A DNA stretch of 64,000 nt from a virus, in IMG/VR virus record IMGVR_UViG_3300037963_003542; one strand, 5' to 3'. Of this stretch, positions 5,854 through 63,733 are shown one piece after another (the stretch's first letter is position 1; every line of letters starts with the position of its first letter). Made by a program: the position numbers and the translations under genes. A model generated the notes under the pieces. The model searched no databases. It was not told where the DNA came from and was given only the letters and a program-made list of their open reading frames with translations.

Positions 5854-5855
5854 TT

Positions 5856-5886: not shown

Positions 5887-6210
5887 ATGGAAGTATCTGC
5901 TAAAATTAACATTAACCCCTATTTGGGGTCCAGAGGTTCTAAAGGAAGAACAATGAATGTCACCGAAGAGCAGTTTGCAACTGCTCTTGCGGCTTGTAAC
6001 TGGGAATGGCATGACATCACTGATGATGCTACTGACGAACAACTTGCTGCATATGAAACTGCTAAAGCTTCATATGAGTTAGTTGCTAGTATGTACGATG
6101 CACTTCTTGCTAAGTATAGCAAGGACAAAAAAGCGAGAAAAAAAGTTCATCTTCAGTATAATGCTGCTGCTCCAGACATGTACAAGAAAGAACCTGAACA
6201 AATGTGGTGA
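5887..6210 (+). CDS. Hypothetical protein (late)
   Basis: 107-aa ORF between a late promoter and a terminator. Confidence 0.7.
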   Translation: MEVSAKININPYLGSRGSKGRTMNVTEEQFATALAACNWEWHDITDDATDEQLAAYETAKASYELVASMYDALLAKYSKDKKARKKVHLQYNAAAPDMYKKEPEQMW

Positions 6211-9384: not shown

Positions 9385-9955
9385 TTACACGATTGGAATT
9401 TTTGATTTACCAATAAAAGTATTGCCAGTTTTTTCTTGGGACAGGAAGAAAGAAGAAATCCTAGCACTCAAAACTGATAATCTAAAAAAAGTAAAGCACG
9501 AAAATATCATAACAGATTTTAGGCACAGTTCTAAAAAATCACATAACTATTCAAAAAAACTCGAAGAAATTTTCTATGATGAACTGCAGTTAATTTATAG
9601 AGAATTTAACTTAAAAGATTATTTTATAAGAAATTCTTGGATGGAAGTTGCAGAGAAAACCATGAATCATGCTGTACATAATCATGGTGCCATTGGTTTT
9701 AGTGCAGTTGTATTCGTAGACTTTGATCCTAAGGTACACACTCCAACTCAGTTCATATCACCATATGGAGATTGGGAGACTGGAACAACAAAAACATTTG
9801 TACCTAGAGGAATTGAAGAAGGATCTTTATTAGTGTTTCCATCTATGTTGAATCACTACACAGACCCAAATAATAGTGATATCCCTAGAACTATACTATC
9901 ATTCAATATCAATAGAAAAGCAGAGTCAATGTATCCTTCGGAGTACGAATCATGA
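9371..9955 (+). CDS. 2OG-Fe(II) oxygenase family protein (TIGR02466-like)
   Basis: SW...VHNHGAIGFSAVVFV...LLVFPSMLNHYT...RTILSFN pattern. Confidence 0.8.
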   Translation: MARTNYTIGIFDLPIKVLPVFSWDRKKEEILALKTDNLKKVKHENIITDFRHSSKKSHNYSKKLEEIFYDELQLIYREFNLKDYFIRNSWMEVAEKTMNHAVHNHGAIGFSAVVFVDFDPKVHTPTQFISPYGDWETGTTKTFVPRGIEEGSLLVFPSMLNHYTDPNNSDIPRTILSFNINRKAESMYPSEYES

Positions 9956-11199: not shown

Positions 11200-11203
11200 A
11201 GTA

Positions 11204-11210
11204 ATAAATA
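11204..11210 (+). promoter_or_regulatory. T4-type late promoter (ATAAATA) for gp13
   Basis: Late consensus core about 30 nt upstream of the gp13 start, overlapping a terminator hairpin. Confidence 0.7.
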
Positions 11211-11237
11211 CCTCTAGGAAACTAGGGGTATTTTTTT
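11208..11237 (+). terminator. Intrinsic terminator of halogenase operon
   Basis: ATACCTCTAG-GAAA-CTAGGGGTAT stem followed by a T-tract. Confidence 0.8.
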
Positions 11238-11241
11238 ATTC

Positions 11242-12036
11242 ATGGCACGACCCTCAACACGCCAGGAACTAATTGATTACTGCTTAAGGAAATTAGGTTT
11301 TCCCGTCCTAGAGATTAACGTAGATGATGATCAGATTGAGGATCTTGTGGATGATGCTATTCAATTCTTCCAAGAGCGTCATTTTGATGGAAGCATCAAA
11401 ACATTTTTAAAATTAGAAGTTACCGAGCAGATGATTACTGACGCGAAAGCGAACAGTACAATTTCTGGTACGGATTTCAAGGAGCAGAACAATTATGTCA
11501 CTGTTCCTGAGCATGTTCTCGGAATAACTCAGGTATATGCTTATGACAATAGTTCATCAGCAGTATCAGGAAACATCTTCAGTATGAAGTATCAGTTGTT
11601 CCTGAACGATTTCTATAACTTCGGTTCAATGGAAATCCTGAACTATTATATGGTAAAGCAATATCTTGAGACTCTTGATTTTGTTATTGGTAACTTTAAA
11701 CCAGTAAGATTTAATAAGAGAGAAAATAGATTATACATTGATACTGACTGGGATAATATTACACCTGGACAGCATTTAATTTTAGACTGTTACAGGATGA
11801 TTGATCCTGCTAACTCATCGGAAGTTTATAATGACAAATGGTTAAAGAGATATCTCACCGCTCTGATTAAGCGTCAGTGGGGACAGAACTTGATTAAGTT
11901 TAAGAATGTAGCACTTCCTGGTGGAACAACTCTGAATGGCAGAGAGTTCTATGAGGATGCTCAACGTGAGATTCAAATGATCATGGATGACTTCAAGTTA
12001 GAATACGAGTTACCACCACTAGACATGATCGGATAA
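11242..12036 (+). CDS. gp13: Neck protein gp13
   Basis: LGFPVLEINVDDDQIEDLVDDA...KRQWGQNLIKF...LPGGTTLNG, and position in the T4 neck block. Confidence 0.92.
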   Translation: MARPSTRQELIDYCLRKLGFPVLEINVDDDQIEDLVDDAIQFFQERHFDGSIKTFLKLEVTEQMITDAKANSTISGTDFKEQNNYVTVPEHVLGITQVYAYDNSSSAVSGNIFSMKYQLFLNDFYNFGSMEILNYYMVKQYLETLDFVIGNFKPVRFNKRENRLYIDTDWDNITPGQHLILDCYRMIDPANSSEVYNDKWLKRYLTALIKRQWGQNLIKFKNVALPGGTTLNGREFYEDAQREIQMIMDDFKLEYELPPLDMIG

Positions 12037-12037
12037 G

Positions 12038-13186
12038 ATGAAGAATTTATACTTCACACAAGGAACAAAAGGTGAGCAAGGATTAGTCCAGGATCTTGTA
12101 GACGAACAGATCAAAATGTATGGTCTGGAATGCTACTACATTCCTCGTCAAATCCATGAGGATAAATTGTGGAATGACATCTACTACTCACAGTTTAAGG
12201 ATAGTTATCTCATTGAGATGTATCTTGAAAACTTTGAGCAGTTTGGTGGCAATGGAGACATGCTGTCTAAATTTGGTCTCCGTGTAACTGATGAGATTCA
12301 ACTCACAGTATCAAGAAGGAGATGGAAAGATTTTGTCGATGTTCAGACTAATAAAATTGTTAGTGGAAGACCCAATGATGGCGACCTCATTTGGTTCCCA
12401 TTAAATGAAACTGTATTTGAGATCAAGTATGTAGAGAACCAAAAACCTTTCTATCAATTAGGAAGTCTATATACATATACCATGACATGTGAAGTCTTTG
12501 AGTATGGAGACAGTATCTTTGATACTGGTATTCCTGCTGTCGATAACACTGAAATGGAATCTGGAGTATATCCAATTATACTCAATACTGGTGGTTCTGG
12601 TTACTTCAAGCAGGACGAAAAAATCACTGGTACGAGATTCACTGCTACAGCAACAACACCTGTTGCTGATAATAACGGTGTTCTTGGTGCTATTACTATT
12701 ACCAATGGTGGTGGCAGATATGAAACTGCTCCAAATGCATTCTGGTATTCACCCACTGGAGCATTTATCGGAACCTCTACTACAGTGATTACCGATGGAG
12801 TAGTGTCTACAGTCAATTCTCCAACAACTCCATACATTTATGGAGATGTTACATATGACTCTCAAGGCAACATTGATACGATTACTCCATGGGCACCTAC
12901 AATTAACATTGAGAGTTCTCCTGGTGACGTTGTAGGCAAGGTTGCCGAATGGGATGAAAACACCAGAACTCTGAGTGTTGCATATGCCAATGGTACTTTT
13001 GAATTGAATGAAGAGATTGTCGGTGCAGACTCTAATGCTAGATGGTCTGTCGGATCTTTCGACACACTTGATATGACAGATTCGTTCTCGGAGAATAGAC
13101 AACTTGAAGATGAAGCGGATGATATTCTCGACTTCACTGAAAAGAATCCATTCGGAGAATTTGGTAATTTTACAGGTAGCTTTTAA
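12038..13186 (+). CDS. gp14: Neck protein gp14
   Basis: EQxLVQDLVDEQIKMYG...LSKFGL...PNDGDLIWFPL...FEIKYVE...KNPFG. Confidence 0.92.
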   Translation: MKNLYFTQGTKGEQGLVQDLVDEQIKMYGLECYYIPRQIHEDKLWNDIYYSQFKDSYLIEMYLENFEQFGGNGDMLSKFGLRVTDEIQLTVSRRRWKDFVDVQTNKIVSGRPNDGDLIWFPLNETVFEIKYVENQKPFYQLGSLYTYTMTCEVFEYGDSIFDTGIPAVDNTEMESGVYPIILNTGGSGYFKQDEKITGTRFTATATTPVADNNGVLGAITITNGGGRYETAPNAFWYSPTGAFIGTSTTVITDGVVSTVNSPTTPYIYGDVTYDSQGNIDTITPWAPTINIESSPGDVVGKVAEWDENTRTLSVAYANGTFELNEEIVGADSNARWSVGSFDTLDMTDSFSENRQLEDEADDILDFTEKNPFGEFGNFTGSF

Positions 13187-13992
13187 TGTTAGGAAATTAT
13201 TTTTATCACAAAATTATTAGAAAGACTGTTACCACATTTGGTACACTTTTTAATAACATTCAACTAAAAACTTTGGATGCTAATGGCGGAAATGTTATGG
13301 AGCAGAAAGTTCCATTGGCATATGGTCCTATCCAAAAGTTTTTAGCAAGACTCAATCAATCACCCGATCTTGATAAGAAGGTGACAATTACTGTTCCTAG
13401 ATTGTCATTTGAGATGACATCTATTCAGTATGACTCAGGCAGGAAAGTTCCTCCTATTAATAGGAATAGAGCAACAGGAGATGGTCAGACCACAACTACT
13501 AAAACTCAATATCTTCCTGTACCATATAATATTGGGTTTGAATTAAATGTGATTGCGAAATCTCAGGACGATGCGTTGCAAATTCTTGAGCAAATTCTTC
13601 CATTCTTTCAACCACAGTTTAGTATGACTGTGGATCTTATTCCTGAAATGAATGAGAAACGTGATATTCCTATCATCTTAGAGAGCATTGATTTTACTGA
13701 TGATTATGAAGGAGACTATTCTACCAGAAGATACATTTATTATACACTGAGATTTTCAGTTAAGACTTACATGTATGGTCCTGTTGCTGCTAACGACATC
13801 ATCAGGAAGTCTATCCTTGATACTAACATTGGTGATAGAAATACTAATGCTAGGGTTATGGAATATAATGTTCAACCCAAAGCATTGGAGGACAAGAACA
13901 ACGATGGCACTATCAATGCTGCTGACGATGCTCTGCTACAACCAGATGATGACTTCGGATTCAATGAGGGTATAACGTATCATGGACAATAA
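13186..13992 (+). CDS. gp15: Tail sheath stabiliser/completion protein gp15
   Basis: YFYHKIIRK...FGTLFN...VPLAYGP.QKFL...QILEQILPFFQP. Confidence 0.92.
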   Translation: MLGNYFYHKIIRKTVTTFGTLFNNIQLKTLDANGGNVMEQKVPLAYGPIQKFLARLNQSPDLDKKVTITVPRLSFEMTSIQYDSGRKVPPINRNRATGDGQTTTTKTQYLPVPYNIGFELNVIAKSQDDALQILEQILPFFQPQFSMTVDLIPEMNEKRDIPIILESIDFTDDYEGDYSTRRYIYYTLRFSVKTYMYGPVAANDIIRKSILDTNIGDRNTNARVMEYNVQPKALEDKNNDGTINAADDALLQPDDDFGFNEGITYHGQ

Positions 13993-14398
13993 ATTTCAGA
14001 AGAACATGGAGGATGTTTTTGACATCACTCCTATGGATGAAGTAGAACAACCCAAACCTGAGAAGGTGGAAGTTGATGCTGCTGATGTAGAGACTGACTA
14101 TAAGTATGCTCGTGGAGAGTTGTATGAACTCATTCAGAAGGGTCAGGTTGCCATTGAGGAGTTGCTGGACGTTGCTAGGAGCAGTAACCACCCAAGAGCA
14201 TATGAAGTCGCCTTTCAGGGCATTAAGAACGTCGCTGACATCACTGATAAGTTAGCAGACCTTCAGAAGAAAATGAAAGATTTGGGTCAAGAAGAAAAAA
14301 AAGGACCATCTACTGTAAACAATACTATGTTTGTAGGTTCTACTGCTGATCTTGCTAAGATGCTTAAGCAAGCAAAAAACAATATGGAAGATAAATAA
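13982..14398 (+). CDS. gp16: Terminase small subunit gp16
   Basis: DYKYARGELYELI...HPRAYEVA...NNTMFVGSTADL. Confidence 0.9.
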   Translation: MDNKFQKNMEDVFDITPMDEVEQPKPEKVEVDAADVETDYKYARGELYELIQKGQVAIEELLDVARSSNHPRAYEVAFQGIKNVADITDKLADLQKKMKDLGQEEKKGPSTVNNTMFVGSTADLAKMLKQAKNNMEDK

Positions 14399-14413
14399 CT
14401 AAAAAGTATACCA

Positions 14414-14674
14414 ATGATTATCAAACCTCTCTCTGTCGCAGAAGATATTCAGGCAGCTGCATTAGCTGATGCTACTGCTTTAGCAGGAACACTTCTTTGG
14501 GTAGTAAATACAAACGCCGCGGCTGCCAAAGTTACTGTTGCTAATGCCTCAGCAGTCACAGTTTACATTCCTGCTGGTGAAGGAATGGCAATCAGAAAAG
14601 ATCCTGGTGCTGTAGTAGAAGCTAGTACTGCCAGTGGTTCTGTGTGGGCATCGGCAATTGCATACCAAAATTGA
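14414..14674 (+). CDS. Small hypothetical protein (late)
   Basis: 86-aa Ala/Val-rich ORF preceded by ATAAATA at 14391-14397. Confidence 0.7.
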   Translation: MIIKPLSVAEDIQAAALADATALAGTLLWVVNTNAAAAKVTVANASAVTVYIPAGEGMAIRKDPGAVVEASTASGSVWASAIAYQN

Positions 14675-14705
14675 ATAAATAAACTAGTAAACCCCCGTTG
14701 CTGGC

Positions 14706-15134
14706 ATGAAGTCATTTAAAGAATTTAGAGAGCTTTCAGAAGCGAAACGTGGACTTTATGCAAACATCCACGCTAAAAGAAAGCGTGGTGAATCTCCTGC
14801 TAAACCAGGAGATGAGGATTATCCTGCAAAGGATGCCTTTAAGAAAGCGGCGCGGACTGCTAAAGAAGAACTTGAACTCACACAAGAAGGAGCAGCCTGG
14901 ACAAAAAAGTCTGGTAAGTCCGCTAGCGGCGGACTTAATGCGAAGGGACGAAAATCTTACGAAAGAGAAAATCCTGGAAGCGACCTCAAAGCTCCAAGCA
15001 AGAAGGTTGGAAATCCCCGTCGCGCATCGTTTTGCGCTAGAATGAAGGGTATGAAGAAAAAGTTAACCTCTAAGAAAACTGCTAAAGACCCTGATTCTAG
15101 AATCAACAAATCACTAAGAGCCTGGAACTGCTGA
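14706..15134 (+). CDS. Basic late protein, putative internal head protein (DUF6321-like)
   Basis: Starts MKSFKEFRELSE, very Lys/Arg-rich, GGLNAKGR...RRASFCARM motif. Late promoter at 14675-14681. Confidence 0.65.
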   Translation: MKSFKEFRELSEAKRGLYANIHAKRKRGESPAKPGDEDYPAKDAFKKAARTAKEELELTQEGAAWTKKSGKSASGGLNAKGRKSYERENPGSDLKAPSKKVGNPRRASFCARMKGMKKKLTSKKTAKDPDSRINKSLRAWNC

Positions 15135-15137
15135 TAA

Positions 15138-16802
15138 ATGCCTGATAAAATTTACAAAGGTTCGCCCAATCTAAAAGCGGCGAATGTGGAAATGAGTTTC
15201 ACACCTGAGCAAGTTCAGGAGTGGATTAAATGTGCTGATGATCCAGTCTACTTTACTAGAAATTATATCAAGATTGTTTCTCTGGACGAAGGTCTTGTTC
15301 CATTTAAAATGTGGGACTTTCAGGAGGACATGATTAACAGGTTCCATGCGAACCGATTTAACATTGCTAAACTGCCACGACAGACAGGTAAGTCCACTAC
15401 GGTGGTATCTTACCTGTTACATTATGCTATCTTTAATGATAACGTAAACATTGGTATTCTAGCAAACAAACTTACTACATCCAGAGAACTCTTAGGCAGG
15501 TTACAACTTGCCTATGAAAATCTTCCTAAGTGGATGCAGCAAGGTATTGTGTCATGGAATAAAGGATCTCTAGAACTTGAGAATGGATCTAAGATCATGG
15601 CAGCATCTACCTCCAGTTCTGCTGTTCGAGGTATGTCATTCAACATCATTTTCTTGGACGAATTTGCATTCGTTCCAACTCATATTGCAGAACAGTTTTT
15701 CTCCTCTGTATATCCTACCATCTCCTCTGGTAAATCCACAAAGGTTATTATTATCTCAACGCCTAACGGCATGAATATGTTCTACAAGCTCTGGCATGAT
15801 GCAGAGCGTGGTAAGAACGAATATAAAACTACTGAAGTTCATTGGTCACAGGTTCCTGGAAGGGATGCTAAGTGGAAAGAACAAACTATTGCGAACACCT
15901 CACAGAGACAGTTCACACAGGAATTTGAGTGTGAGTTCTTGGGATCTGTAGATACGTTAATTGCTGCGAGTAAATTGCGTACTATGGTGTATGATGACCC
16001 TATTACCAATAATAACAAAGGTCTCGTAGTATATGAAAATCCCCAAAAAGAACATGATTATATTATTACTGTTGACGTTGCCCGTGGTGTGGGCAGTGAT
16101 TATAGTGCGTTTCTGGTTTTTGACATTACAAAGTTCCCTTACAGGCTTGTAGCACGATACAGGAACAATGAGATCAAAGCGATCATGTTCCCTACAATTA
16201 TTACTGATATTGCAAAAGGATATAATAGAGCATATGTTCTAACCGAAGTTAATGATATTGGAGATCAGGTAGCATCCATGATGCACTTTGATCTAGAGTA
16301 TGATCATATTCTTATGTGTGCCATGAGAGGGCGTGCTGGGCAGATCGTCGGCACAGGATTCTCTGGAAAGAAAACACAACTCGGTGTCAAGATGTCTAAG
16401 ACCGTAAAGAAGGTTGGATGTTTAAACTTAAAAACTTTTATTGAGGATGACAAATTGGTCATCCCAGACTATGAGACTATCGCAGAACTTACGACGTTCA
16501 TCTCCAAACGTGATTCGTTTGAGGCAGAGGAAGGATGTCATGATGACCTTGCGATGTGTCTCGTAATCTTCTGCTGGTTGGCAGTACAAGATTACTTTAA
16601 AGAAATGACGGATAATGATGTCCGTCAAAGAATCTACGACGAGCAGAAGAATCAAATTGAACAGGACATGGCACCATTTGGTTTCATCTCCGATGGTCTA
16701 GAAGATCAAGAAAGTTTTGTAGATGAGTCTGGAGATCGTTGGTTCTTGGATGAATATGGTGATGTAGCTTCAGAGTTCACTTACATGGGGTCTTATCTAT
16801 AA
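15138..16802 (+). CDS. gp17: Terminase large subunit gp17
   Basis: Walker A PRQTGKS, Walker B IIFLDEFAF, nuclease DVARG and HDDLAM motifs. Confidence 0.97.
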   Translation: MPDKIYKGSPNLKAANVEMSFTPEQVQEWIKCADDPVYFTRNYIKIVSLDEGLVPFKMWDFQEDMINRFHANRFNIAKLPRQTGKSTTVVSYLLHYAIFNDNVNIGILANKLTTSRELLGRLQLAYENLPKWMQQGIVSWNKGSLELENGSKIMAASTSSSAVRGMSFNIIFLDEFAFVPTHIAEQFFSSVYPTISSGKSTKVIIISTPNGMNMFYKLWHDAERGKNEYKTTEVHWSQVPGRDAKWKEQTIANTSQRQFTQEFECEFLGSVDTLIAASKLRTMVYDDPITNNNKGLVVYENPQKEHDYIITVDVARGVGSDYSAFLVFDITKFPYRLVARYRNNEIKAIMFPTIITDIAKGYNRAYVLTEVNDIGDQVASMMHFDLEYDHILMCAMRGRAGQIVGTGFSGKKTQLGVKMSKTVKKVGCLNLKTFIEDDKLVIPDYETIAELTTFISKRDSFEAEEGCHDDLAMCLVIFCWLAVQDYFKEMTDNDVRQRIYDEQKNQIEQDMAPFGFISDGLEDQESFVDESGDRWFLDEYGDVASEFTYMGSYL

Positions 16803-16987
16803 TGTCTTCTAAAGAAGGTCACATATCTATTGAATTAGATATTAACGGTGTGAGAGTAATTCACACTGGTCTTAAACAAGCATGTGAAAAATGGGCAGGT
16901 GGTGATGCTCATGAACAAGCAGATTTATTAGCAATGAGAGATAATTTCTATCGTCTCATTTTGGAACATCAAGTAAATGGATTTTGA
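16802..16987 (+). CDS. Small hypothetical protein, paralog of 35775..35972
   Basis: 61 aa, translationally coupled to gp17. Shares ELDI...W...DxFYRxILE with 35775. Confidence 0.65.
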   Translation: MSSKEGHISIELDINGVRVIHTGLKQACEKWAGGDAHEQADLLAMRDNFYRLILEHQVNGF

Positions 16988-41809: not shown

Positions 41810-42823
41810 ATGAGTTTTCTTAACAACGTTATCAAGGAGTTAGACAATGAATTTGCGTCAATCGTTGATGAAGGCATCGCCGCAGGGGATTGTAGTTCGT
41901 TTGTGGACACTGGCTCTTATATCCTCAACGCTTTATGTAGTGGCAGTATTTTCGGCGGTCTCCCACAAAATAAAGTCACTGCCCTCGCAGGAGAGTCCAG
42001 TACAGGTAAAACCTTCTTCGCCCTCTCAATTGTAAAGAATTTTCTTGAGCAAAATCCTGAAGGTCAGGTAATCTACTTTGAGTCTGAGTCTGCTATCTCT
42101 AAGGACATGATGGCAACCCGCGACATTGATGTGAAGCGTGTTGGTCTTGTTCCTGTGACTACGGTTCAGGAGTTCCGTACACAATCTATTAAGGTTGTTG
42201 ATGAGTTTATGAAACTCAAGAAAGAAGATCGCCCACCGCTCCTCTTTGTGCTAGACTCTTTAGGTATGCTGTCCACCTCTAAGGAGGTGCAGGACGCTAC
42301 TGATGGCAAGGAGACTCGCGACATGACCCGTGCTCAGGTGATCAAGTCTATCTTTAGAATCTTGTCACTGAAACTGGGTCAGGCAGGTATCCCTCTGATC
42401 GTTACTAACCATACTTACGAAGTTGTCGGTGCCTATGTTCCTACTAAGGAGATGGGTGGTGGCACTGGTCTGAAGTATGCTGCTTCTAGTATCTTGTTCC
42501 TCTCTAAAAAGAAGGAGAAGGATGGTACTGAGCAGGTTGGTAACATCATCAAAGTGAAGGCGCATAAGTCTCGCTTTACTAAAGAAAACTCTGATGTAGA
42601 AACGAGGTTGTATTTTGACGAACGAGGTCTTGACAAGTATTACGGACTACTGGAGCTGGGTCAACAGTACGGAGTCTTTGAGCGTGTGGGTAACCGTGTT
42701 AAGACTGAGCATGGTAATGTATATCCTTCTGCTATCTACAAGGACCCTGAGAAGTATTTCACACCAGAAGTCCTCCAAGCACTTGACGAGTGTGCCCGAA
42801 AAGAATTCTGCTACGGATCTTAA
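41810..42823 (+). CDS. uvsX: RecA-like recombinase UvsX
   Basis: [31 protein letters not shown]. Confidence 0.96.
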
Positions 42824-44208
42824 TGGAAGCAATTGAAAGCACTATCATCAAGAACTTAGTTAGTGATGATACTTATGTTCGTAAGGTAATTCCTTACATC
42901 AAACCAGAATACTTTAATGAATACTCGGATAAGATTCTGTTTGACATCATCAACAACTTTGTTGTGACCTATGGTCAAACTCCTACTAAAGAAGTTCTTA
43001 GTATTGAGGTTGATAATCGTAAGGATCTGAATGAAGATTCTTATAAACAGTTGCAGGTCAAGATTGATGACATTGATAACACTGAAGTAGACTCTCAGTG
43101 GTTGTTGGATGCTACCGAGAAGTGGTGTAAACAACGCGCAGTTTACTTGGCACTACTGGATAGTGTGAAGATTGCTGATGGTCAGGATGATAAGAGAACT
43201 GAAGATGCGATCCCATCAATTCTTCAGGAAGCTCTTGCTGTCTCATTTGATGACCATATTGGTCACGACTATATAGAAGATTACGAAGATCGCTTCGCCT
43301 TCTATCACAGAAATGAAAGCAAAATCCCGTTTGACCTTTCTCTCTTCAATAAGATTACGAAGGGTGGTATTCCTAACAAAACTCTCAATGTCGCACTTGC
43401 TGGCACTGGGGTGGGCAAATCACTGTTTATGTGTCACATGGCCGCTGCGTCATTACTTCAGGGTAAAAATGTCCTCTACATCACACTGGAGATGGCAGAA
43501 GAGAAGATCGCTGAACGCATTGACGCGAATCTTCTTAACGTAAATATCAAGGACATTGAGGATCTGCCTGAGCAACTGTTTGAATCTAAAGTCACTCGTC
43601 TCGCACAGAAGACTAATGGCAAACTTATCATCAAAGAATATCCAACAGCATCTGCACACTCTGGACACTTTAAAGCACTTCTCAATGATCTATCGCTTAA
43701 GAAGAGTTTTAAACCAGACATCATCTTTATTGATTACCTCAACATCTGTGCATCATCTCGCTACAAAGGAGCACTAGTTAACTCGTATACCTATGTCAAA
43801 GCAATTGCGGAAGAACTTCGGGGTCTTGCTGTTGAGTTTGATCTCCCTATTGTTAGCGCCACTCAGACTACTCGCTCTGGTTATGGCTCTAGCGATGTTG
43901 ATCTTACTGATACCTCTGAATCTTTTGGACTTCCTGCTACTGCGGACCTCATGTTTGCTCTTATCTCTACAGAGGAGCTTGAAAATATCAACCAGATCAT
44001 GGTCAAGCAACTCAAGAACCGCTATAACGACCTCAACCTCTTCAAGAGATTCGTAGTGGGTATTGACAGAGCGAAGATGAGGTTGTATGATGTAGAGGAC
44101 TCTGCTCAAGTTGACATTGTTGACTCAGGGCAAGAGCAATATGACTTTGAAGAAATAGCAAAGTCTCAACAACCCACAGCAAAATTTACTGATTTTAAAT
44201 TTAATTGA
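42823..44208 (+). CDS. gp41: Replicative helicase gp41
   Basis: LAGTGVGKS, TLEMAEEKI, IDYLNI, SATQTTR, SESFGLPATAD. Start MEAIE overlaps the uvsX stop. Confidence 0.96.
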   Translation: MEAIESTIIKNLVSDDTYVRKVIPYIKPEYFNEYSDKILFDIINNFVVTYGQTPTKEVLSIEVDNRKDLNEDSYKQLQVKIDDIDNTEVDSQWLLDATEKWCKQRAVYLALLDSVKIADGQDDKRTEDAIPSILQEALAVSFDDHIGHDYIEDYEDRFAFYHRNESKIPFDLSLFNKITKGGIPNKTLNVALAGTGVGKSLFMCHMAAASLLQGKNVLYITLEMAEEKIAERIDANLLNVNIKDIEDLPEQLFESKVTRLAQKTNGKLIIKEYPTASAHSGHFKALLNDLSLKKSFKPDIIFIDYLNICASSRYKGALVNSYTYVKAIAEELRGLAVEFDLPIVSATQTTRSGYGSSDVDLTDTSESFGLPATADLMFALISTEELENINQIMVKQLKNRYNDLNLFKRFVVGIDRAKMRLYDVEDSAQVDIVDSGQEQYDFEEIAKSQQPTAKFTDFKFN

Positions 44209-44209
44209 T

Positions 44210-44614
44210 ATGACTATTGATCTTGAAAAATATGTTGAGTTCGTTGACGGAACCACCTCAGAACCTAGTAAAGAGTTTACTGAATTCATTGATCGTCTGA
44301 TCAAACTGAACCAGGAAGACTTTGCTACTGAGCGTCTACTGACTGCTGCTGTAGGTATGTCTGCTGAAGCAGGCGAGTTTACTGAGATTGTGAAGAAGAT
44401 TGTTTTTCAGGGAAAACCTGTAAACAATGAAAACCTGTTTCATCTGAAACGTGAGCTTGGAGACATCATGTGGTATGTTGCACAAGCTTGCATGGGTCTC
44501 GACATTTCGCTTGAGGAAATCGTTCAGATGAATTTTGAGAAACTGAGTGCCCGTTACCCCGAAGGCTCGTTTAGCATTGATCGCTCGGAAAACCGAGTGG
44601 CAGGCGATCTCTAA
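44210..44614 (+). CDS. mazG: MazG nucleotide pyrophosphohydrolase
   Basis: GMSAEAGEFTEIVKK...RELGDIMWYVAQAC...N.EKLSARYP. Confidence 0.93.
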   Translation: MTIDLEKYVEFVDGTTSEPSKEFTEFIDRLIKLNQEDFATERLLTAAVGMSAEAGEFTEIVKKIVFQGKPVNNENLFHLKRELGDIMWYVAQACMGLDISLEEIVQMNFEKLSARYPEGSFSIDRSENRVAGDL

Positions 44615-44640
44615 TAAATACCCCCGTAAGGGGGTTTTTT
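44614..44640 (+). promoter_or_regulatory. Late promoter ATAAATA overlapping terminator hairpin
   Basis: ATAAATA then ACCCCC-GTAA-GGGGGT-T-tract immediately before the ATG at 44642. Confidence 0.75.
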
Positions 44641-44641
44641 A

Positions 44642-46039
44642 ATGGGTATTGCCGAATTCAAAAAAGCAAGCAATGGTACTCACTATTGGAAAACTTTTGC
44701 TGAGAAAGTTCAGAACGGTGTTGCTCTTCTCACTAAAGATGGACATGTTACCATAGACAAGAGTGATAAGCGTTGGGGATTTTTAAAGACTACTAGTAGG
44801 TTTGATGCCAATGCTGAAGTTGGCATGGAACAATTTAAGAAAGGCAGAAGTTATTCTTTCCCTAAACTTGGTGGTGGTGAGGTTTCACTGGGTGCAATCC
44901 TCAAAGCAAATGTAAGCGTAGGAAGTCCTAGAAAGAAGTATAATCTCGGCAATGTAGCAGAGGGTGTTCTTGCATTTGCTATCACTGCAAGATTTTTAAA
45001 TAAGAATAAGAGAATTACAGAGCAAGATCTTGTTAAGGTTTTGAATGCAGTTAAACCTACAAGATCTGGAACTTCGTCAGGTAAGATATTTCAGTCACCT
45101 AATGCTCCTCATCCTAAGATGAGGAAACTTTTGTTTGATGATGTGAAGGTAGTTGTAAACCTCACGACAGCAAACATGGACATGCTATTCACTAGTGATC
45201 CTGATGAGTATGAGGTGCTGAGACAACTGATGCCATCGTGCATCTCTTATGCAAACTCACAGGAGATCAATACTGCGGCACTGATGATGTATCGCAATGG
45301 CAAGAAAGATTATATTGATGTGATCGCTGATGGAATTGGTGATGAGACAGGAACAAAGGTTGATGTAAACCTTGTCATTAACAACTCCAAGAACATTTCT
45401 ATTCCTGGTAATACTAATGGTACGCAACTAAGACTGACACAGATCTCATTGAAGAGAGATGTAGATCAGTTTGCTCAGGTTGGTGGATGGACTATGGATA
45501 AGACTGATGATTTGTGGGGCAGGATTCTTGGTAGTAGACCATCCACTTCTAGTGTAGTTCAACAGATCTATGCCGACTCTGCTGAGATGAGAGGAACCAC
45601 AGAGGAGGTTGCTGCTGATACTATGAGGAGAGTTTATACCTGGGCTAATCAGCAACTGGAGCAAAAATTTAGTAATAAAGTATGGTTAGAGGAGTTTGTT
45701 GAAGTATTAGATAATTTTGCAACGTACAAAGAAGAGAACGTAGCACTGGTTGAGATCAAAGGTGACACGTTCCATAGATATGATTTCAAAAAGTTAAAGG
45801 TTGCTCTTGTCGGATTCCCTGAGGCAGACGTTCCTGCTAACCTTAGACTAAGTTCTGAATACATTGTCGGTGCTAGTGGTCTGCCTACAGTCAGAATCTC
45901 TGGAACTAACCAAAATGATAATAAGAAGTATGAGTTAGTGCAGTTCCGATTCAAGATGGAGAAAGGAACTGGTGGTGTTCCTAAAGCAATCCGTAATTAT
46001 GTTGAGAAACGCTCTGGTCTGGAGGACTACATCGGATGA
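44642..46039 (+). CDS. Hypothetical protein, possible PD-(D/E)xK nuclease fold
   Basis: NVAEG helix, TKVDV and ISLK motifs in 465 aa. Confidence 0.5.
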   Translation: MGIAEFKKASNGTHYWKTFAEKVQNGVALLTKDGHVTIDKSDKRWGFLKTTSRFDANAEVGMEQFKKGRSYSFPKLGGGEVSLGAILKANVSVGSPRKKYNLGNVAEGVLAFAITARFLNKNKRITEQDLVKVLNAVKPTRSGTSSGKIFQSPNAPHPKMRKLLFDDVKVVVNLTTANMDMLFTSDPDEYEVLRQLMPSCISYANSQEINTAALMMYRNGKKDYIDVIADGIGDETGTKVDVNLVINNSKNISIPGNTNGTQLRLTQISLKRDVDQFAQVGGWTMDKTDDLWGRILGSRPSTSSVVQQIYADSAEMRGTTEEVAADTMRRVYTWANQQLEQKFSNKVWLEEFVEVLDNFATYKEENVALVEIKGDTFHRYDFKKLKVALVGFPEADVPANLRLSSEYIVGASGLPTVRISGTNQNDNKKYELVQFRFKMEKGTGGVPKAIRNYVEKRSGLEDYIG

Positions 46040-47250
46040 GCAAGAACACTCACTTAGAACACCTAGAGGATAGTATCTTACTTGATGGAGCGCAAGGTGC
46101 TACCGACGCATTTAAATTTTTAGATCTGCTGGCAAAAACATTCACCACTGGTGGATCTAATGCATTTAAGATTACCACAAAGTGGGACGGAGCACCTGCT
46201 ATATTTTGTGGTATCTATCCTGGTACGAGTAACTTCTTTGTTGGAACTAAATCAGTATTCAATAAGGATGCGAAGATTAATTATGCAGACTCTGATATTG
46301 ATAGGAATCATGGTCATGCTGCAGGACTGGTGGAGAAACTAAAAGCATCACTCAAGTATCTTCCAGCACTCGGTATCAAAGGAGTTGCACAGGGTGATCT
46401 TCTATTCACCACAGATAAAAAGCAACAGGTTATTGACGGCAAGAACTGCATTACGTTCCAACCTAATACTATTACATATGCTATCCCAGAAGATAGTGAT
46501 CTCTATGAGAAAGCAAAGAAGGCAAAACTTGGTGTAGTATTTCACACCACATATACTGGCAGTGATGTCAGTACGATGAATGCTTCTTTTGGTTTTGATG
46601 TCAGTCAACTTAAATCTTCTGATGATGTTCTAGTTCTCAGTGCAGAGATAGGAACATTAGGCAGCGATACACTTCTCACAGCTGGGGAGAAAACTAAACT
46701 AGGACAACTGAGAACTCAGGCACCAGCGATAGTGCGTCGTGCTGGTTCATTCTTGGATGAGGTTGCTGAGCAGATTGTTGCTAAAGATCAGTTGACTATC
46801 GGACCACGACTGAAGATTTTCTTTAATGCTTACGTTCGTCAGGGCAGGACTGTTCCCTCACCTGATGCTTTCTATAAAGAGTTTACGAAGTATTTTGAGA
46901 CAGAGTGTCAGAAGGCAGTAGATAAAGTCAAGACTCCTAAAGCAAAGGCAACCAAACTCAAGAAGATGTTTGATGGTCTTGAGTTTATTGAAAATAATAA
47001 AAGTGCTCTAAACAGCACTGTTCAACTATATAAGTTATTACAAGAAGCGAAGTTAGTATTCATTCGCAAACTTGAGAAGGGTGAGAAGATTGGTACTTAT
47101 CTCAAGACTGAAGGTGGATATGAAGTCACAGCACCTGAGGGTTATGTTGCTATCAGTGGTGGCACCAATGCTGTGAAGTTAGTGGATCGTTTGTCATTTA
47201 GCGTAGCAAACTTTAACGTATCCAAAGACTGGGTATCAGGAGATAAATGA
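46036..47250 (+). CDS. DUF6267-like protein with ligase-superfamily motifs
   Basis: KNTHLEHLED N-terminus; TKWDG, QGDLLF, PEGYV and AVKLVDR motifs. Confidence 0.6.
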   Translation: MSKNTHLEHLEDSILLDGAQGATDAFKFLDLLAKTFTTGGSNAFKITTKWDGAPAIFCGIYPGTSNFFVGTKSVFNKDAKINYADSDIDRNHGHAAGLVEKLKASLKYLPALGIKGVAQGDLLFTTDKKQQVIDGKNCITFQPNTITYAIPEDSDLYEKAKKAKLGVVFHTTYTGSDVSTMNASFGFDVSQLKSSDDVLVLSAEIGTLGSDTLLTAGEKTKLGQLRTQAPAIVRRAGSFLDEVAEQIVAKDQLTIGPRLKIFFNAYVRQGRTVPSPDAFYKEFTKYFETECQKAVDKVKTPKAKATKLKKMFDGLEFIENNKSALNSTVQLYKLLQEAKLVFIRKLEKGEKIGTYLKTEGGYEVTAPEGYVAISGGTNAVKLVDRLSFSVANFNVSKDWVSGDK

Positions 47251-47795
47251 AAAGAGTAGTATTTGCTTGGGGTAGATTCAACCCACCAACAATCGGGCAT
47301 GAGAAACTTCTGCTAGCAGTTAAGAACATTGCTGGTCAGGATGATTTCTTTATCTACCCTACACATACACAGGACAAGAAGAAGAATCCTTTAGATTCTA
47401 AAACTAAGTCAGATGTGATGAAGAAAATGTTTCCTACAATGAATACGAATATCATTTACGATCCTCACATTAAAACTATCATTCATGCATTGCAGCAGTT
47501 ACAGGGAACATATCATGACTGCGTGCTTGTTTGTGGATCTGATCGCGTGCAATCATATGATAAGATGATTAGTAAGTATAATGGTATTGAATATACATTC
47601 AGAAAATTAGAGGTTGTATCTGCTGGCGAGAGAGATCCTGATGCTGATGGTGCTGAAGGTATGTCTGCCAGTAAGATGAGAGCAGCAGCAGTTCAATCTG
47701 ACTTCAATTCATTTAGAGCAGGTATGCCTAGAACTATCTCTGATAGAGATTGCAGAGAACTCATGGACAAGATCAGAGATATTATGCTCAACTAA
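47247..47795 (+). CDS. Cytidylyltransferase-like (HIGH-family) nucleotidyltransferase
   Basis: GRFNPPTIGH, GSDRV and GMSASKMR motifs. Confidence 0.85.
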   Translation: MKRVVFAWGRFNPPTIGHEKLLLAVKNIAGQDDFFIYPTHTQDKKKNPLDSKTKSDVMKKMFPTMNTNIIYDPHIKTIIHALQQLQGTYHDCVLVCGSDRVQSYDKMISKYNGIEYTFRKLEVVSAGERDPDADGAEGMSASKMRAAAVQSDFNSFRAGMPRTISDRDCRELMDKIRDIMLN

Positions 47796-47820
47796 ATAGT
47801 TTGATAGAATCTAAGTATTA

Positions 47821-48768
47821 ATGTACAACTTTTCAGAATACTCAAAGGTTTACATCCGTGAACAGTATTACAATGATGAGATCTTCCCAGAAGGGATGAA
47901 AGTAAAGAATGGAAATGATCAGGTCGGCACTATTATTAGACGTGGACCAAACTATGTTATCTGCTTAGATGAAAATCATAAGACATTCAGAAGTTGGATC
48001 TCTGACATCAGCGAGGTTCATGAACTTGGCACTGATGAGACCAGAGAGTATCTTCAGGATCTTACTCCTGGTCAAAAGAAAGAACAATATGGTAAGACTA
48101 AGACTCCAGAGTGGTCTACATCTATAAATAAAAGAAAAAGTACCCAAAAGGAAATGTATAACGATAGCTATTCAGAGAATTTGGTTAAACGCACTGCTCA
48201 AGGCATTGCTGGTGAGCAAAGCTACGGTGAAGTTGAGAATAAGCAGGAAGTGTCTGATGAGTATTCAGCATCTTTGATGGATGCTGCTGTTGCTAAACTC
48301 TCTTCAGGTAAACTATTTGAAGGTAGCATGAAGCAAGCACGCAAGAATGTTGGTGCTGATTCATGTTGGGATGGTTATAAAGCAAAGGGAACTAAAAAGA
48401 AAGGTGGTAAGGTTGTTCCTAACTGTGTCAAAGAAGAGGATCTTGACGAGAAGAAACTTGATCCCGTTGGCAAGGAAGATGGTGATGTAGATAACGATGG
48501 TGATAAGGATTCATCAGACAAGTATCTGATGAAGCGTCGTAAGGCAATCGGCAAGGCAATCGGAATGAAGAAGGAAGAGCGTTCCGACTGGAGATCCGAA
48601 CTTGAGGAGAAGTACGGAAAGAAAATGAAGGAAGCTGCTCAATGCAATAATTCAAAGGCAGGAACTGAGTGTCCTGTACATGGCACGAAGGAATGTAAGT
48701 GTGAAGACACAGTAGATGAAGGTTGCGGTTGCGACGGTCCTGCTCCTAAAAAAATGAAGAAGTCTTGA
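47821..48768 (+). CDS. Modular late protein (possible two-gene fusion, putative head protein)
   Basis: N-terminal KOW/SH3-like part; C-terminal CWDGYK...VPNCVKEE and DVDNDGDKD modules. Internal TATAAATA. Confidence 0.7.
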   Translation: MYNFSEYSKVYIREQYYNDEIFPEGMKVKNGNDQVGTIIRRGPNYVICLDENHKTFRSWISDISEVHELGTDETREYLQDLTPGQKKEQYGKTKTPEWSTSINKRKSTQKEMYNDSYSENLVKRTAQGIAGEQSYGEVENKQEVSDEYSASLMDAAVAKLSSGKLFEGSMKQARKNVGADSCWDGYKAKGTKKKGGKVVPNCVKEEDLDEKKLDPVGKEDGDVDNDGDKDSSDKYLMKRRKAIGKAIGMKKEERSDWRSELEEKYGKKMKEAAQCNNSKAGTECPVHGTKECKCEDTVDEGCGCDGPAPKKMKKS

Positions 48769-48799
48769 TAAATAGCTGAGACCTGTATTATATAAGATC

Positions 48800-49003
48800 A
48801 TGCTTGCATTTTTACTCCCCCTCGCGTCTAAGGTAATTAGAGATGCCGTCGCCAACATTCCAGAGAATGAAGAACTCGGTGAGAAGTTGGTTGAGATCTG
48901 TCTTGTTATCCTTGCTAAAGCGGTTAAGTTGACTAAGACTGATATGGATGATAAACTTCTTGAGGTTGTTGCAGAAGCAATTAAAGCAAGAGAAGAAGGT
49001 TGA
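48800..49003 (+). CDS. Small hypothetical protein
   Basis: 67-aa amphipathic ORF after ATAAATA. Confidence 0.7.
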   Translation: MLAFLLPLASKVIRDAVANIPENEELGEKLVEICLVILAKAVKLTKTDMDDKLLEVVAEAIKAREEG

Positions 49004-49027: not shown

Positions 49028-49058
49028 GGGGAGCATGACTCCCCTTTTTTTATAAATA
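49028..49058 (+). terminator. Terminator followed directly by late promoter TATAAATA
   Basis: GGGGAG-CATGA-CTCCCC-T-tract, TATAAATA at 49051-49058. Confidence 0.8.
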
Positions 49059-61459: not shown

Positions 61460-61614
61460 TTGTGTTCTTTTGTGAATGGTTCCCAGTGTTCCCAACCATA
61501 TTTGTGGACTAAGTGCATACCAATAATGGGCACAAAAACTAAGAAAAACCCCATGACACCTAGACACCATGAGGTTTGCATAACAGATCTTACAAAGAGT
61601 TGGACGTGAGTCAC
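61456..61614 (-). CDS. Small single-TM protein (not in ORF track)
   Basis: GTG start overlapping the talC stop; ...LGVMGFFLVFVPIIGMHLVHKYGWEHWEPF. Confidence 0.6.
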   Translation of the reverse strand: MTHVQLFVRSVMQTSWCLGVMGFFLVFVPIIGMHLVHKYGWEHWEPFTKEHK

Positions 61615-62258
61615 GTTGATTCCCAGTCCTTCTGGAATTGATCCAGACCAGCGTCTGTCAGAACATGATCATACATTTTCCAGAATACTTTAGGTGGCAT
61701 AGTCACAACACTTGCACCATAAGAATAACAACGGGAGACATGGTGGACATCTCGCAATGATGCTGCAAGAATTTCAGTGGACATTCCTTGTACAGCATAT
61801 GCGTTAGCGATTGCACGGACCAATTCAACTCCACTGAATGAGTTATCATTGCAACGTCCTACAAAGGGTGAGCAGTATGTTGCACCTGCTTTTGCTGCCA
61901 TCAGTGCTTGTGCTACAGAGAACACAAGAGTCACATTAGTTTTGACACCCATAACAGAGAGTGCCTTACATGCAATCAATCCTTCTACAGTACAAGGTAC
62001 TTTGATAGTAACTGCTTTACTTCCTAATTGAATGAACTGTTGAGCCTGTTCAATCATTTCTTCAGCAGTCTCGGCAACCACCTCACATGACACACTTTCA
62101 AACTCTGGATATGTAGTAGTCAGTTCTCTAGCAACATCAGGAAGAGTTCTTCCACTACGCTTAATCAGTGTAGGATTGGTTGTTACACCATCAATCAATC
62201 CAGTGCGTCGTGCTTTTTTAATTTCATCAAGATCAGCGGTGTCTAAAAAGATTTTCAT
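61611..62258 (-). CDS. talC: Transaldolase TalC
   Basis: IFLDTAD, GVTTNPTLI, TIKVPCT, NVTLVFS, SPFVGR, LAASLR, TDAGLDQF. Confidence 0.97.
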   Translation of the reverse strand: MKIFLDTADLDEIKKARRTGLIDGVTTNPTLIKRSGRTLPDVARELTTTYPEFESVSCEVVAETAEEMIEQAQQFIQLGSKAVTIKVPCTVEGLIACKALSVMGVKTNVTLVFSVAQALMAAKAGATYCSPFVGRCNDNSFSGVELVRAIANAYAVQGMSTEILAASLRDVHHVSRCYSYGASVVTMPPKVFWKMYDHVLTDAGLDQFQKDWEST

Positions 62259-62286
62259 GAGTTAAAATACCTGTGTATTATTTAGT

Positions 62287-63630
62287 TTATGCTGGGTAGT
62301 CCCAGTTTGTGATAAAAGCAGTTTTGTGTGTTGGACCCCATCCACCTGTGTAGAGGTAGGGTGCCGTGCGAACGGGACAAGCTTCACCTACACAAAGAAG
62401 ATCATCTACGATTCTCCATGATTCTAATACTTCTTCCGAATGCACAAAGTGTGATTGATCACCATTTATAGCTTCATATAAAAGTTTTTCATATCCATCA
62501 ATTGCTCTTTCCTCAGGATACTTATGAGTAAGAGTTGCAGTTTCAACTTGATCACCATGTCCAGGTGCTTTCATATCAATGCGAATATCAAAGTGTGGAG
62601 ATGGTTGCAAGCGCATGACAATACGATCATTGTATTCATGACCCTCGAACAATTGTTGAGGAGGTGCTTTGAGTTTAACGACAACTTCTACACACTGGTA
62701 AGGCATCTTCTTGCCCGTCATGACATGAAAAGGAACTCCCTCCCAACGCCAGTTATCGACGAATAAAGTACCAGCGAAATAGGTAGGAGTGTGACTCCTA
62801 GAATCAACGCCCTCTTCATTACGGTAGCCATCGTACTGTCCTAAAATAACGTTCTCGCTCATTCTAGTGGCGGCGAGTACCTTTGTCTTCTCACGTCTGA
62901 GTTCCCTGGCATTCATACGAGATGGTGCTTCCATCGCAATGAGTGCAAGAACTTGTAAGATATGGTTTTGTAGCATATCGCGTACAGCACCAGCAGTCTC
63001 GTAGTATTGAGAGCGACCTTCACATCCAATAGTTTCAGTTGCAAAAATTTGAACTTCTTCTATGTACTGCCTATTCCAAAGTGGTTCCAATAGAATATTG
63101 CTAAAGCGGGTGGCAAGGATGTTATTAACAGTATCTTTGCCGAGATAATGATCAATGCGATAGACTTGTTTTTCGCGTAGATGTCGCTCCACCACTGACT
63201 GTAAATGATCAGCAGATTTATAATCGTGCCCAAAGGGTTTTTCGATAACCACTCTGGAGTGATCTGGGTCATCCAAGAACCCAGCCTCTTTAAGATTGAT
63301 GATTGCATTTGCATACCTCTCTGGTGGAACAGATAAGAAATAAGTTGTGTCTGCGCTATCATCATGAAGTTTCATCAGACTCTCTTGGCAATCAAGATCG
63401 CAGGAGATGAAATCCATCCAAGTAGTAAACTCTTCAGGATAATCTCCAAGTTTCTCTAACCAAACATCTTTAGGAAGATCTCTACGAGATGCTCCAACAA
63501 TTAAAATATTTTTTGGAAGAAGTTCCTTTTTCCATAACTCATAGAGTGCTGGAATAAGTTTCTTTTTACATAGATCTCCAGCAGCACCGAAGATTACAAT
63601 GCGTCTAGTGAGCGGTTCCGTTTCCATCAT
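62287..63630 (-). CDS. zwf: Glucose-6-phosphate dehydrogenase
   Basis: IFGAAGDL, IEKPFG, RIDHYLGK, RDMLQNH, RWEGVPF, TGK. Likely start MMETEP at 63630. Confidence 0.97.
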   Translation of the reverse strand: MMETEPLTRRIVIFGAAGDLCKKKLIPALYELWKKELLPKNILIVGASRRDLPKDVWLEKLGDYPEEFTTWMDFISCDLDCQESLMKLHDDSADTTYFLSVPPERYANAIINLKEAGFLDDPDHSRVVIEKPFGHDYKSADHLQSVVERHLREKQVYRIDHYLGKDTVNNILATRFSNILLEPLWNRQYIEEVQIFATETIGCEGRSQYYETAGAVRDMLQNHILQVLALIAMEAPSRMNARELRREKTKVLAATRMSENVILGQYDGYRNEEGVDSRSHTPTYFAGTLFVDNWRWEGVPFHVMTGKKMPYQCVEVVVKLKAPPQQLFEGHEYNDRIVMRLQPSPHFDIRIDMKAPGHGDQVETATLTHKYPEERAIDGYEKLLYEAINGDQSHFVHSEEVLESWRIVDDLLCVGEACPVRTAPYLYTGGWGPTHKTAFITNWDYPA

Positions 63631-63733
63631 ACTTGTCTGTTTCGTAGTAGTTATTTTCACCTTTTCGTACCCCGAAATATATCGTGGCCAGTACAAACGG
63701 TATTGCAATCCATTTGAGGACATCAGCGAACAT
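63605..63733 (-). CDS. Small single-TM protein between gnd and zwf (not in ORF track)
   Basis: 42-aa ORF MFADVLKWIAIPFVLATIYFGVRKGENNYYETDKYDGNGTAH, overlapping both neighbours. Confidence 0.65.
   Translation of the reverse strand: MFADVLKWIAIPFVLATIYFGVRKGENNYYETDKYDGNGTAH

Follow-up and report, generated by a model that had tools for sequence, protein, structure and literature searches.

The locus and its relatives

We analysed a 64,000-nucleotide stretch of viral DNA (IMG/VR record IMGVR_UViG_3300037963_003542; hereafter the window), whose gene content and gene order are those of a T4-like marine cyanomyovirus. Our subject is a locus of three open reading frames (ORFs) encoding proteins of 465, 404 and 182 amino acids (aa), and above all its second gene, whose product Pfam assigns to DUF6267 (PF19782, E 3.8e-128). 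The features of the locus are as follows, with gene boundaries taken from the ORF list.

44642–46039, + strand: 465-aa ORF
46036–47250, + strand: 404-aa ORF, DUF6267 (PF19782)
46180–46182: codon of Lys49, the putative catalytic residue of DUF6267
DUF6267 residues 2–205 and 350–395: predicted nucleotidyltransferase domain
DUF6267 residues about 214–350: predicted helical insert
47247–47795, + strand: 182-aa ORF (PF01467)

A previous reading of the sequence alone (hereafter the initial annotation) had described three ORFs coupled by ATGA overlaps directly after mazG. We confirmed both junctions (46036 and 47247), with all three ORFs on the + strand; mazG (PF03819) ends at 44614 and the first ATG of the locus is at 44642. 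The order in the window is gp43, uvsX (41810–42823), gp41 (to 44208), mazG (44210–44614) and the three-ORF locus, with genes for a virion protein, DUF7207, primase and nrdAB on its 3′ side. At the DNA level the window is most similar to Prochlorococcus phage P-HM2 and Synechococcus phage ACG-2014h (~69–70% identity). In P-HM2, mazG is followed by genes for a 2-oxoglutarate (2OG) oxygenase, a 496-aa hypothetical protein, a 406-aa hypothetical protein (T4-GC 71) and a 'cytidyltransferase' (T4-GC 190), and the gene order is the same in the window.

DUF6267 has the motifs and the predicted fold of the ligase superfamily

The initial annotation had picked out four nucleotidyltransferase motifs in the 404-aa protein, and all are present: KWDG (residues 49–52), QGDLLF (119–124), EGYV (368–371) and VKLVDR (380–385). 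In an alignment of 86 sequences with 34–88% identity to the window's DUF6267, residues H9, K49, D51, G52, P54, K72, D121, Y148, H170, E368, G369, V371, K381, R385, F388 and N392 are invariant, and F141 and Y148 of motif IIIa are invariant or nearly so. Judged from this alignment, the invariant set covers the predicted motifs I, III, IIIa, IV and V of the ligase/capping superfamily, with motif I in the form KxDG and the remainder following in order. A further conserved motif, HLEHxED, lies at the N-terminus.

The AlphaFold model of DUF6267 (predicted local distance difference test, pLDDT, 92.5; predicted template modelling score, pTM, 0.87) has a β-rich core at residues 44–202, a helical insert at 216–348 and strands at 353–382 that return with motifs IV and V. 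The motifs occupy strand and loop positions that agree with the ligase layout, and by its structural matches the model has the superfamily fold, in which two antiparallel sheets form the nucleotide pocket. In a Foldseek-independent search of 48,161 chains, the Naegleria gruberi RNA ligase NgrRnl (5cot) came top with 184 residues aligned, a root-mean-square deviation (rmsd) of 3.9 and a Z of 8.6, where by the tool's own note Z 8.6–9 lies barely above the level that unrelated models can reach. Trl1 (Z 7.4), Rnl2 (7.2), REL1 (7.1) and Rnl1 (6.7) came next, and many DNA ligases were found at Z 5.4–6.5. Among the 50 best rows, 20 or more are RNA or DNA ligases that span model residues 2–395, whereas the non-ligase rows align to the helical insert alone. 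A second structural search returned ligases in 50 of 50 rows, NgrRnl reaching Z 9.0 and REL1, Rnl1, Trl1 and Rnl2 scoring 7.7, 7.4, 7.2 and 7.2, respectively. The first annotated matches outside the family in BFVD are viral RNA ligases. At the level of predicted structure, the ligase-type fold that had been proposed for DUF6267 was thus upheld, ligases dominating the matches up to the best Z of 9.0.

Besides the narrow margin of these Z values, several observations weigh against a relation to ligases. Searches of PDB sequences with phmmer and with the family profile gave low-complexity helical matches only and no ligase, and alignment of DUF6267 with T4 Rnl2 by hhalign had a probability of 0.1. 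Foldseek against the PDB returned nothing at E <0.001, T4 Rnl1 coming first at E 0.068. DUF6267 contains no oligonucleotide/oligosaccharide-binding (OB) or other known nucleic-acid-binding domain, and its 135-residue helical insert is without a known counterpart. A protein atlas gave a weak lead, a cluster with 48% RNA_ligase (score 0.75).

Pfam gives PF19782 only, and places the protein neither with the Rnl2/Rnl5-type ligases of RNA_ligase (PF09414) nor with the ATP-dependent DNA ligases (PF01068 plus an OB domain), to which there is no Pfam match. After motif V the model continues into a short helix and ends at residue 404, with no OB barrel. On the predicted structure, DUF6267 is best regarded as a separate family within the superfamily, outside the named ligase families, because no sequence method detects its relation to ligases.

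The best structural match, the nucleotidyltransferase domain of NgrRnl (Rnl5; 5cot and 6vt9), aligns over ~182–185 residues at rmsd 3.6–3.9 and Z 8.6–9.0, and like DUF6267 has an adenylyltransferase core and no C-terminal OB domain. The two proteins have ~13% identity and no sequence-level relation; DUF6267 is without the N-terminal domain of NgrRnl and, unlike it, carries the N-terminal HLEHxED motif and, between motifs IIIa and IV, a helical insert of 135 residues. T4 Rnl1, T4 Rnl2, T. brucei REL1 and fungal Trl1 are phage or repair-type RNA ligases that match the DUF6267 fold at Z 7.1–7.7 and have the same motif order (I, III, IIIa, IV, V), but their specificity domains are appended at the C-terminus whereas the extra domain of DUF6267 is inserted. 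T4 gp30 and other PF01068 DNA ligases have the nucleotidyltransferase core in common with DUF6267 (Z 5.4–6.6); DUF6267 differs from gp30 in having no OB or DNA-binding domain, no Pfam match to that family, and a late rather than an early or middle promoter context.

DUF6267 is very common in marine viral data. One search gave 8000 scored candidates, all at E ≤ 0.001, and 2458 matches at E ≤ 0.001 were found among 50%-identity cluster representatives. The family occurs in 466 phage isolate records, nearly all of them cyanophages, the other hosts being Pelagibacter, Methylophilales, Vibrio, Stenotrophomonas and Pseudoalteromonas, and in none of 14 control cellular genomes. Its members are annotated 'hypothetical' throughout, in line with the remark in the initial annotation that they are usually left so. 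An NCBIfam scan of DUF6267 gave no match, nor did a PADLOC scan of all four proteins (those of the locus and the 315-aa product of the gene that follows).

DUF6267 is linked to a HIGH-motif nucleotidyltransferase

The gene after DUF6267 had been taken for a HIGH-motif nucleotidyltransferase, and its 182-aa product indeed belongs to this class: it matches CTP_transf_like (PF01467) at E 7e-8 and 33.1 bits against a cut-off of 21, and contains the motifs GRFNPPTIGH and MSASKMR, in which T15-I-G17-H18 and S140-A-S-K-M-R145 are invariant or nearly so across 36 sequences. It has the Rossmann-type architecture and the GxFxPxTxGH and SxSxxR motifs in common with NadD and nicotinamide mononucleotide (NMN) adenylyltransferase (NMNAT), from which it differs by a TxGH variant like that of phosphopantetheine adenylyltransferase (PPAT). 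Many homologues are named 'nicotinic acid mononucleotide adenylyltransferase' by JGI. Of the homologous solved structures, the family profile matches S. aureus NadD (2h29) best, with an E of 0.0015, and the best NCBIfam model is the NadD/NMNAT equivalog TIGR00482, at 24.6 bits and so far under its cut-off of 112.45. Both values count against a NadD/NMNAT assignment, and by sequence the protein resembles an NMNAT weakly at best. In cyanophage papers the transferase is counted among the metabolic genes; our search for papers on 'cytitidyltransferase', a name used in cyanophage annotation, found none.

The case for a link between the two enzymes comes from gene fusions and gene neighbourhoods. 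Among 150 DUF6267 representatives (50% identity), 37 are at least 470 aa long, and 24 of these 37 are fused to a domain of the 182-aa type, which may lie N- or C-terminal to DUF6267. The profile phrog_455 covers both domains, and re-annotated S-PM2 encodes a 591-aa fusion protein. We compared 80 IMG/VR loci, 39 of which extend 4 kb or more past DUF6267; in 30 of these 39 the transferase gene lay downstream on the same strand, and it was in no case upstream or on the other strand. In cyanophage isolates DUF6267 and the transferase occur in a ratio of ~1:1. The association has exceptions that weigh against an obligate pair: in only 27 of the 66 loci with sufficient sequence does the transferase gene begin no more than 500 nt downstream, so that the genes are not always adjacent; 12 loci with 3–5 kb of downstream sequence are without it; the two genes are ~100 kb apart in ACG-2014f; and enzymes of the 182-aa type occur in jumbo coliphages that give no DUF6267 match.

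We also predicted the complex of DUF6267 with the 182-aa protein. The interface score (ipSAE) was 0.56 (0.53, 0.56 and 0.60 in separate runs) and that of the best control 0.00; at least 96% of contacts were common between runs, and partner pLDDT was at least 86. Of 80 solved complexes 58 reached the mark used for this score, as did 2 of 110 mismatched pairs, and at ipSAE ≤0.60 lie only 7 of the 80 solved complexes and both passing mismatches. The prediction is weak backing for contact between the two proteins, although binding was likely beforehand because fusions exist. Overall, fusions and gene neighbourhood support a functional link between DUF6267 and the 182-aa enzyme, and in silico both the predicted ligase fold and the coupling to the transferase are well supported.

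We found no papers that mention DUF6267, or that describe a ligase-like protein paired with such a transferase, and we know of no pairing or fusion of Rnl1, Rnl2, REL1 or Trl1 with a HIGH-motif nucleotidyltransferase. In Vibrio phage 2.275.O, a 349-kb jumbo phage, a DUF6267 gene (positions 5001–6176 of locus L003) has no adjacent transferase; genes for a PF09414 RNA ligase and a Nampt-type protein lie elsewhere in this phage, apart from it.

The next gene appears to be a detached part of the transferase:

47821–48768, + strand: 315-aa ORF, match to phrog_395

Residues about 12–93 of the 315-aa protein match the domain that lies C-terminal to the transferase in longer 'cytidyltransferases' (phrog_395 positions 214–298), with phmmer matches to S-SZBM1_140, ACG-2014f gp194 and Melnitz gp18, and the whole protein resembles PHM2_164, which is annotated 'possible cytitidyltransferase'. 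A long transferase protein appears to have been split into two genes in the window, and the 315-aa gene would be the detached piece of the longer proteins of other phages. The middle of the 315-aa protein is a long low-complexity stretch rich in K, E and D, and its Cys-rich C-terminal tail, CPVHGTKECKCEDTVDEGCGCDG, is possibly a metal-binding site.

A probable late transcription unit with a hairpin at its promoter

The following signals and a further small gene surround the locus.

44063–44091: sigma-70-like site, TTGACA-17-TATGAT
44613–44620, + strand: late-promoter-like box AATAAATA, fitting NATAAATA
44620–44641, + strand: hairpin ACCCCC-GTAA-GGGGGT and T-run, intrinsic-terminator-like
48768–48774: ATAAATA box preceding the 67-aa ORF
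48800–49003: 67-aa ORF, between the 315-aa gene and the terminator
49028–49051, + strand: terminator-like hairpin GGGGAG-CATGA-CTCCCC and T7 run, likely end of the late unit

A late promoter had been placed before the locus, and the box AATAAATA, 22 nt 5′ of the ATG, fits the cyanophage consensus NATAAATA, the late box reported for S-PM2 and Syn9 (PMC2984593). It overlaps the mazG stop codon. ATAAATA matches in the window lie on the + strand in 18 of 20 cases; 11 other boxes are found 17–43 nt 5′ of + strand ORF ATGs, and seven of these 11 fall inside the 9.9–25 kb block, which we took as virion genes from position and size alone. A late box within 120 nt 5′ of the DUF6267 ATG is present in 29 of 77 related loci. 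The simple picture of a single late promoter followed by the locus was incomplete, however: the box stands, but a hairpin with a T-run between box and ATG had been overlooked.

No terminator lies between 47795 and 47821, and because there is none after the 182-aa ORF, the late unit probably extends through the 315-aa gene, comprising the 465-aa, DUF6267, 182-aa, 315-aa and 67-aa ORFs as far as the terminator at 49028–49051. The next late box, at 49052, follows directly after this terminator, 5′ of a virion-protein gene. Contigs from RNA libraries (three studies, four runs), which contain a small share of the sampled words, span all four genes and bridge the junctions 46036 and 47247; as transcript evidence they are weak, being silent on starts, strand and level and open to DNA carry-over.

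Within 44613–44641 the late box shares the first base of the terminator hairpin, and the 3′ arm of the hairpin contains AAGGGGG, the likely Shine-Dalgarno sequence of the 465-aa gene. The arrangement could be a compact switch that is off early and on late. The hairpin would end transcripts arriving from mazG, perhaps started at the sigma-70-like site, and would also mask the ribosome site of the 465-aa gene. A late transcript, starting ~6 nt past the box, would leave out the 5′ arm, so that transcription would run on and the ribosome site would stay accessible.

The nuclease-like gene is an accessory

The first gene of the locus had been called nuclease-like. A Pfam scan of the 465-aa protein matched no family; phrog_3560 was matched. 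Its model (pLDDT 88) is nevertheless consistent with a restriction-nuclease fold of the MspI/HinP1I kind, at modest Z: HinP1I was the top Foldseek match (prob 0.90, E 0.025), and a wide structure search (VIA) gave MspI (Z 6.5, 208 residues aligned) and HinP1I (5.5), followed by Dna2, AddA, a Cas4-family protein, HhaI and Hjc, all of them PD-(D/E)xK nucleases. The match covers ~200 of the 240–260 residues of MspI and HinP1I at ~10% identity, and the 465-aa protein has 95 extra residues at the N-terminus and a C-terminal β domain. The invariant residues E107, D241 and S269-L-K271 could form its active site. MspI and HinP1I have an atypical catalytic motif, D...(N/Q)xK, which D241...S269-x-K271 resembles.

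That the three genes would be conserved as a unit, as the initial annotation implied, did not hold. A homologue of the 465-aa protein is present in 3 of the 80 loci, a set in which 66 reach more than 1.4 kb upstream, and among isolates homologues occur only in ACG-2014f and two Desulfovibrio-phage records. We considered whether the genes that occupy this slot in P-HM2 and Melnitz are homologous to it; BLASTP and hhalign gave negative results. Fusions of the 465-aa protein to DUF6267 were likewise sought (BLASTP against three long representatives; phmmer against all 150) and none was found. Because it is present in only 3 of 80 loci, the 465-aa gene is an accessory gene in a variable slot.

This distribution bears on a model in which the three genes form one machine that cuts, activates and seals, with the nuclease as an integral part. 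In its favour, all three genes are coupled by ATGA overlaps, both in the window and in L009 and L010, two relatives with 88% identity. The rarity of the nuclease gene, the unrelated genes in the P-HM2 and Melnitz slot, the lack of a DUF6267 fusion and the position of the ACG-2014f homologue beside DNA methyltransferases speak against it, and we consider such a machine very improbable and, by distribution, largely refuted.

In the window, no methyltransferase partner lies beside the 465-aa gene or among ten further ORFs (64 kb covered). The ACG-2014f homologue, gp187, lies directly before a DNA methyltransferase gene, as a restriction gene might. At 9740–16930 of the ACG-2014f locus (L004) three genes for DNA methyltransferases are clustered with the nuclease homologue, a grouping that suggests a restriction-modification-like set carried by the phage.

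Capsid-targeting tags in other lineages

A T4 capsid-targeting sequence (CTS) needs no more than the first 10 residues of the protein: positions 4 and 7 serve for targeting, positions 8 and 10 govern processing, and the protein is cut after L/I-x-E (PMC9026906). A CTS-like N-terminus (M..F..F[L/I].E) is present in 54 of the 150 DUF6267 representatives, for example MKTFKHFVTE and MKSFGQFLTE. Transferase-type proteins of other phages also carry such tags:

S-SZBM1 transferase (L006, 10390–11478): MRFRQFIIE/A
Melnitz transferase (L002, 6592–8544): MKKFSEIIE/A
ACG-2014f tagged proteins (L004, 12421–15099 and 17642–18856): MAMRSFLTFLTE/A and MITPKSLLSFLSE/A

The two tagged proteins of ACG-2014f are gp194 and gp190, and one of them is 892 aa long. 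The proteome of purified S-SZBM1 virions includes the tagged transferase _140 and the neighbouring _139, but neither the untagged DUF6267 protein _141 nor _142 (PMC9146016, Table 1); S-CREM2 virions contain the transferase, and the authors note how often it is seen (PMC10665884).

These observations raise the possibility that DUF6267 and the transferase are capsid cargo, brought into the head by an N-terminal tag, processed there by the prohead protease and delivered together with the DNA. The pair would then act as the next infection starts, for example in repair of cleaved host or phage RNA or in restoring NAD+ against NAD-depleting defences. Late expression fits, as do the tags on DUF6267 and on the transferases of S-SZBM1, Melnitz and ACG-2014f, and the virion-borne state of tagged S-SZBM1_140 next to its untagged, undetected neighbour _141. 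Yet neither the window's four proteins nor any of 120 close homologues of its DUF6267 carry a tag, and the four fall outside the T4-type capsid-targeted class, which is marked by hydrophobic residues at positions 4 and 7 and L/I-x-E at 8–10. The start of the 315-aa protein corresponds, when aligned, to an inner stretch of the fused proteins and is therefore not a leader. Carry-over in caesium chloride (CsCl) preparations is possible, as the authors of both proteomes point out (PMC9146016, PMC10665884). Judged by sequence, capsid delivery is plausible for other lineages and unsupported for the window's copy; as an account of the pair we hold it to be unlikely.

Function of the pair and the missing cyanophage ligase

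The explanation that we favour, and consider probable, is that the constant core of this late operon consists of a DUF6267 ligase-like enzyme and a NadD/NMNAT-like partner, the nuclease being accessory and the 315-aa gene a detached piece of the transferase. On the model, DUF6267 would be a divergent covalent (lysyl-NMP) nucleotidyltransferase whose fold is nearest to ATP-dependent RNA ligases without an OB domain. Most likely Lys49 would become adenylylated, pass the AMP to a 5′-phosphate end and seal this to a 3′-OH. The 182-aa enzyme would work together with the ligase-like enzyme, probably in physical contact, and our best guess is that it makes or regenerates a nucleotide cofactor, for instance NAD+ from NMN and ATP.

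DUF6267 may instead keep the ligase fold without joining strands, and serve in end capping or adenylylation, in protein modification, or in activation of a small molecule that the HIGH-motif transferase provides, in keeping with the activate-and-transfer module proposed in the initial annotation. Capping enzymes belong to the superfamily, and a Pithovirus capping-region protein is among the weak BFVD matches. Motif V of ligases reads K-x-K, and that of the window's protein is K-x-x-x-R. The absence of an OB domain would also suit such a role, and for the pairing with a second nucleotidyltransferase we found no precedent among ligases in the literature. Nevertheless, every strong fold match is a strand-joining ligase, and no capping enzyme or other non-ligase stands out among the matches. 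We regard a non-joining function as quite unlikely.

A strand-joining DUF6267 would touch on a long-standing gap. According to Clokie, Millard and Mann, cyanomyoviruses are without a homologue of the T4 DNA ligase gp30; either distant homologues are unidentified or the host ligase serves (PMC2984593), and a second review also leaves undetected distant homologues possible (PMC2993671). We found PF01068, PF01653 and PF09414 to be absent in the complete genomes of P-HM2, Melnitz, ACG-2014f and S-SZBM1 (T4, run as a control for PF01068 and PF09414 and not for PF01653, was positive for both). DUF6267 is present in all four, and going by its predicted structure it is the only ligase-fold gene seen in them.

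Could DUF6267 then be the missing replicative ligase of Kyanoviridae, sealing Okazaki fragments in place of gp30? The reviews leave room for a distant homologue, the four genomes have DUF6267 and none of the three ligase families, and the gene lies within the gp43-uvsX-gp41-mazG ... primase-nrdAB block. The late box before the locus, also found in 29 of the 77 relatives, and the terminator that would insulate it from the mazG transcript make a place in the replisome less likely, as do the capsid-targeting N-termini of 54 of the 150 representatives, which would suit an injected enzyme, and the resemblance to RNA ligases, with no OB or DNA-binding domain. Moreover, the host's NAD-dependent ligase can serve (PMC2984593). 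We judge a replicative role improbable.

A bolder reading is that the pair is a self-contained, cofactor-recycling polynucleotide ligase, tag-loaded and injected in many lineages. The ligase would use NAD+ or another dinucleotide, which the fused or bound NMNAT-like enzyme would remake from NMN and ATP. NAPRTase/Nampt (PF04095) is absent from four Kyanoviridae genomes, so no phage source of NMN was found. We think it quite unlikely that this scheme is correct as a whole. If it were, it would give the ocean's most abundant myoviruses an unrecognised ligase, an injected enzyme that repairs nucleic acid or restores NAD+ as infection begins.

Should DUF6267 prove active as a ligase, textbooks would have to revise the view that T4-like cyanophages of the sea encode none. 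An NMNAT-like enzyme as the near-obligate partner of a ligase-type one would be an association that we found described nowhere in the literature, and the capsid tags seen in other lineages point to injected enzymes of a new class. Reading the transferase as a metabolic 'auxiliary' gene, of teichoic-acid or NAD metabolism, is probably a misreading.

Other features of the window and its occurrence

Elsewhere in the window, on the − strand at 6260–7898, there are tandem paralogues of 266 and 281 aa that both match DUF6445. A transaldolase (talC-like) gene adjoins a glucose-6-phosphate dehydrogenase gene at 61611–63723, also on the − strand; both are known pentose-phosphate auxiliary genes of cyanophages. 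Of sampled words from 44000–49000, 98% are present in two 'air metagenome' runs from 2021, and marine metagenomes of 2014–2015 likewise contain 98%. The marine cyanophage may have entered the air samples through sea spray or through the source sample.

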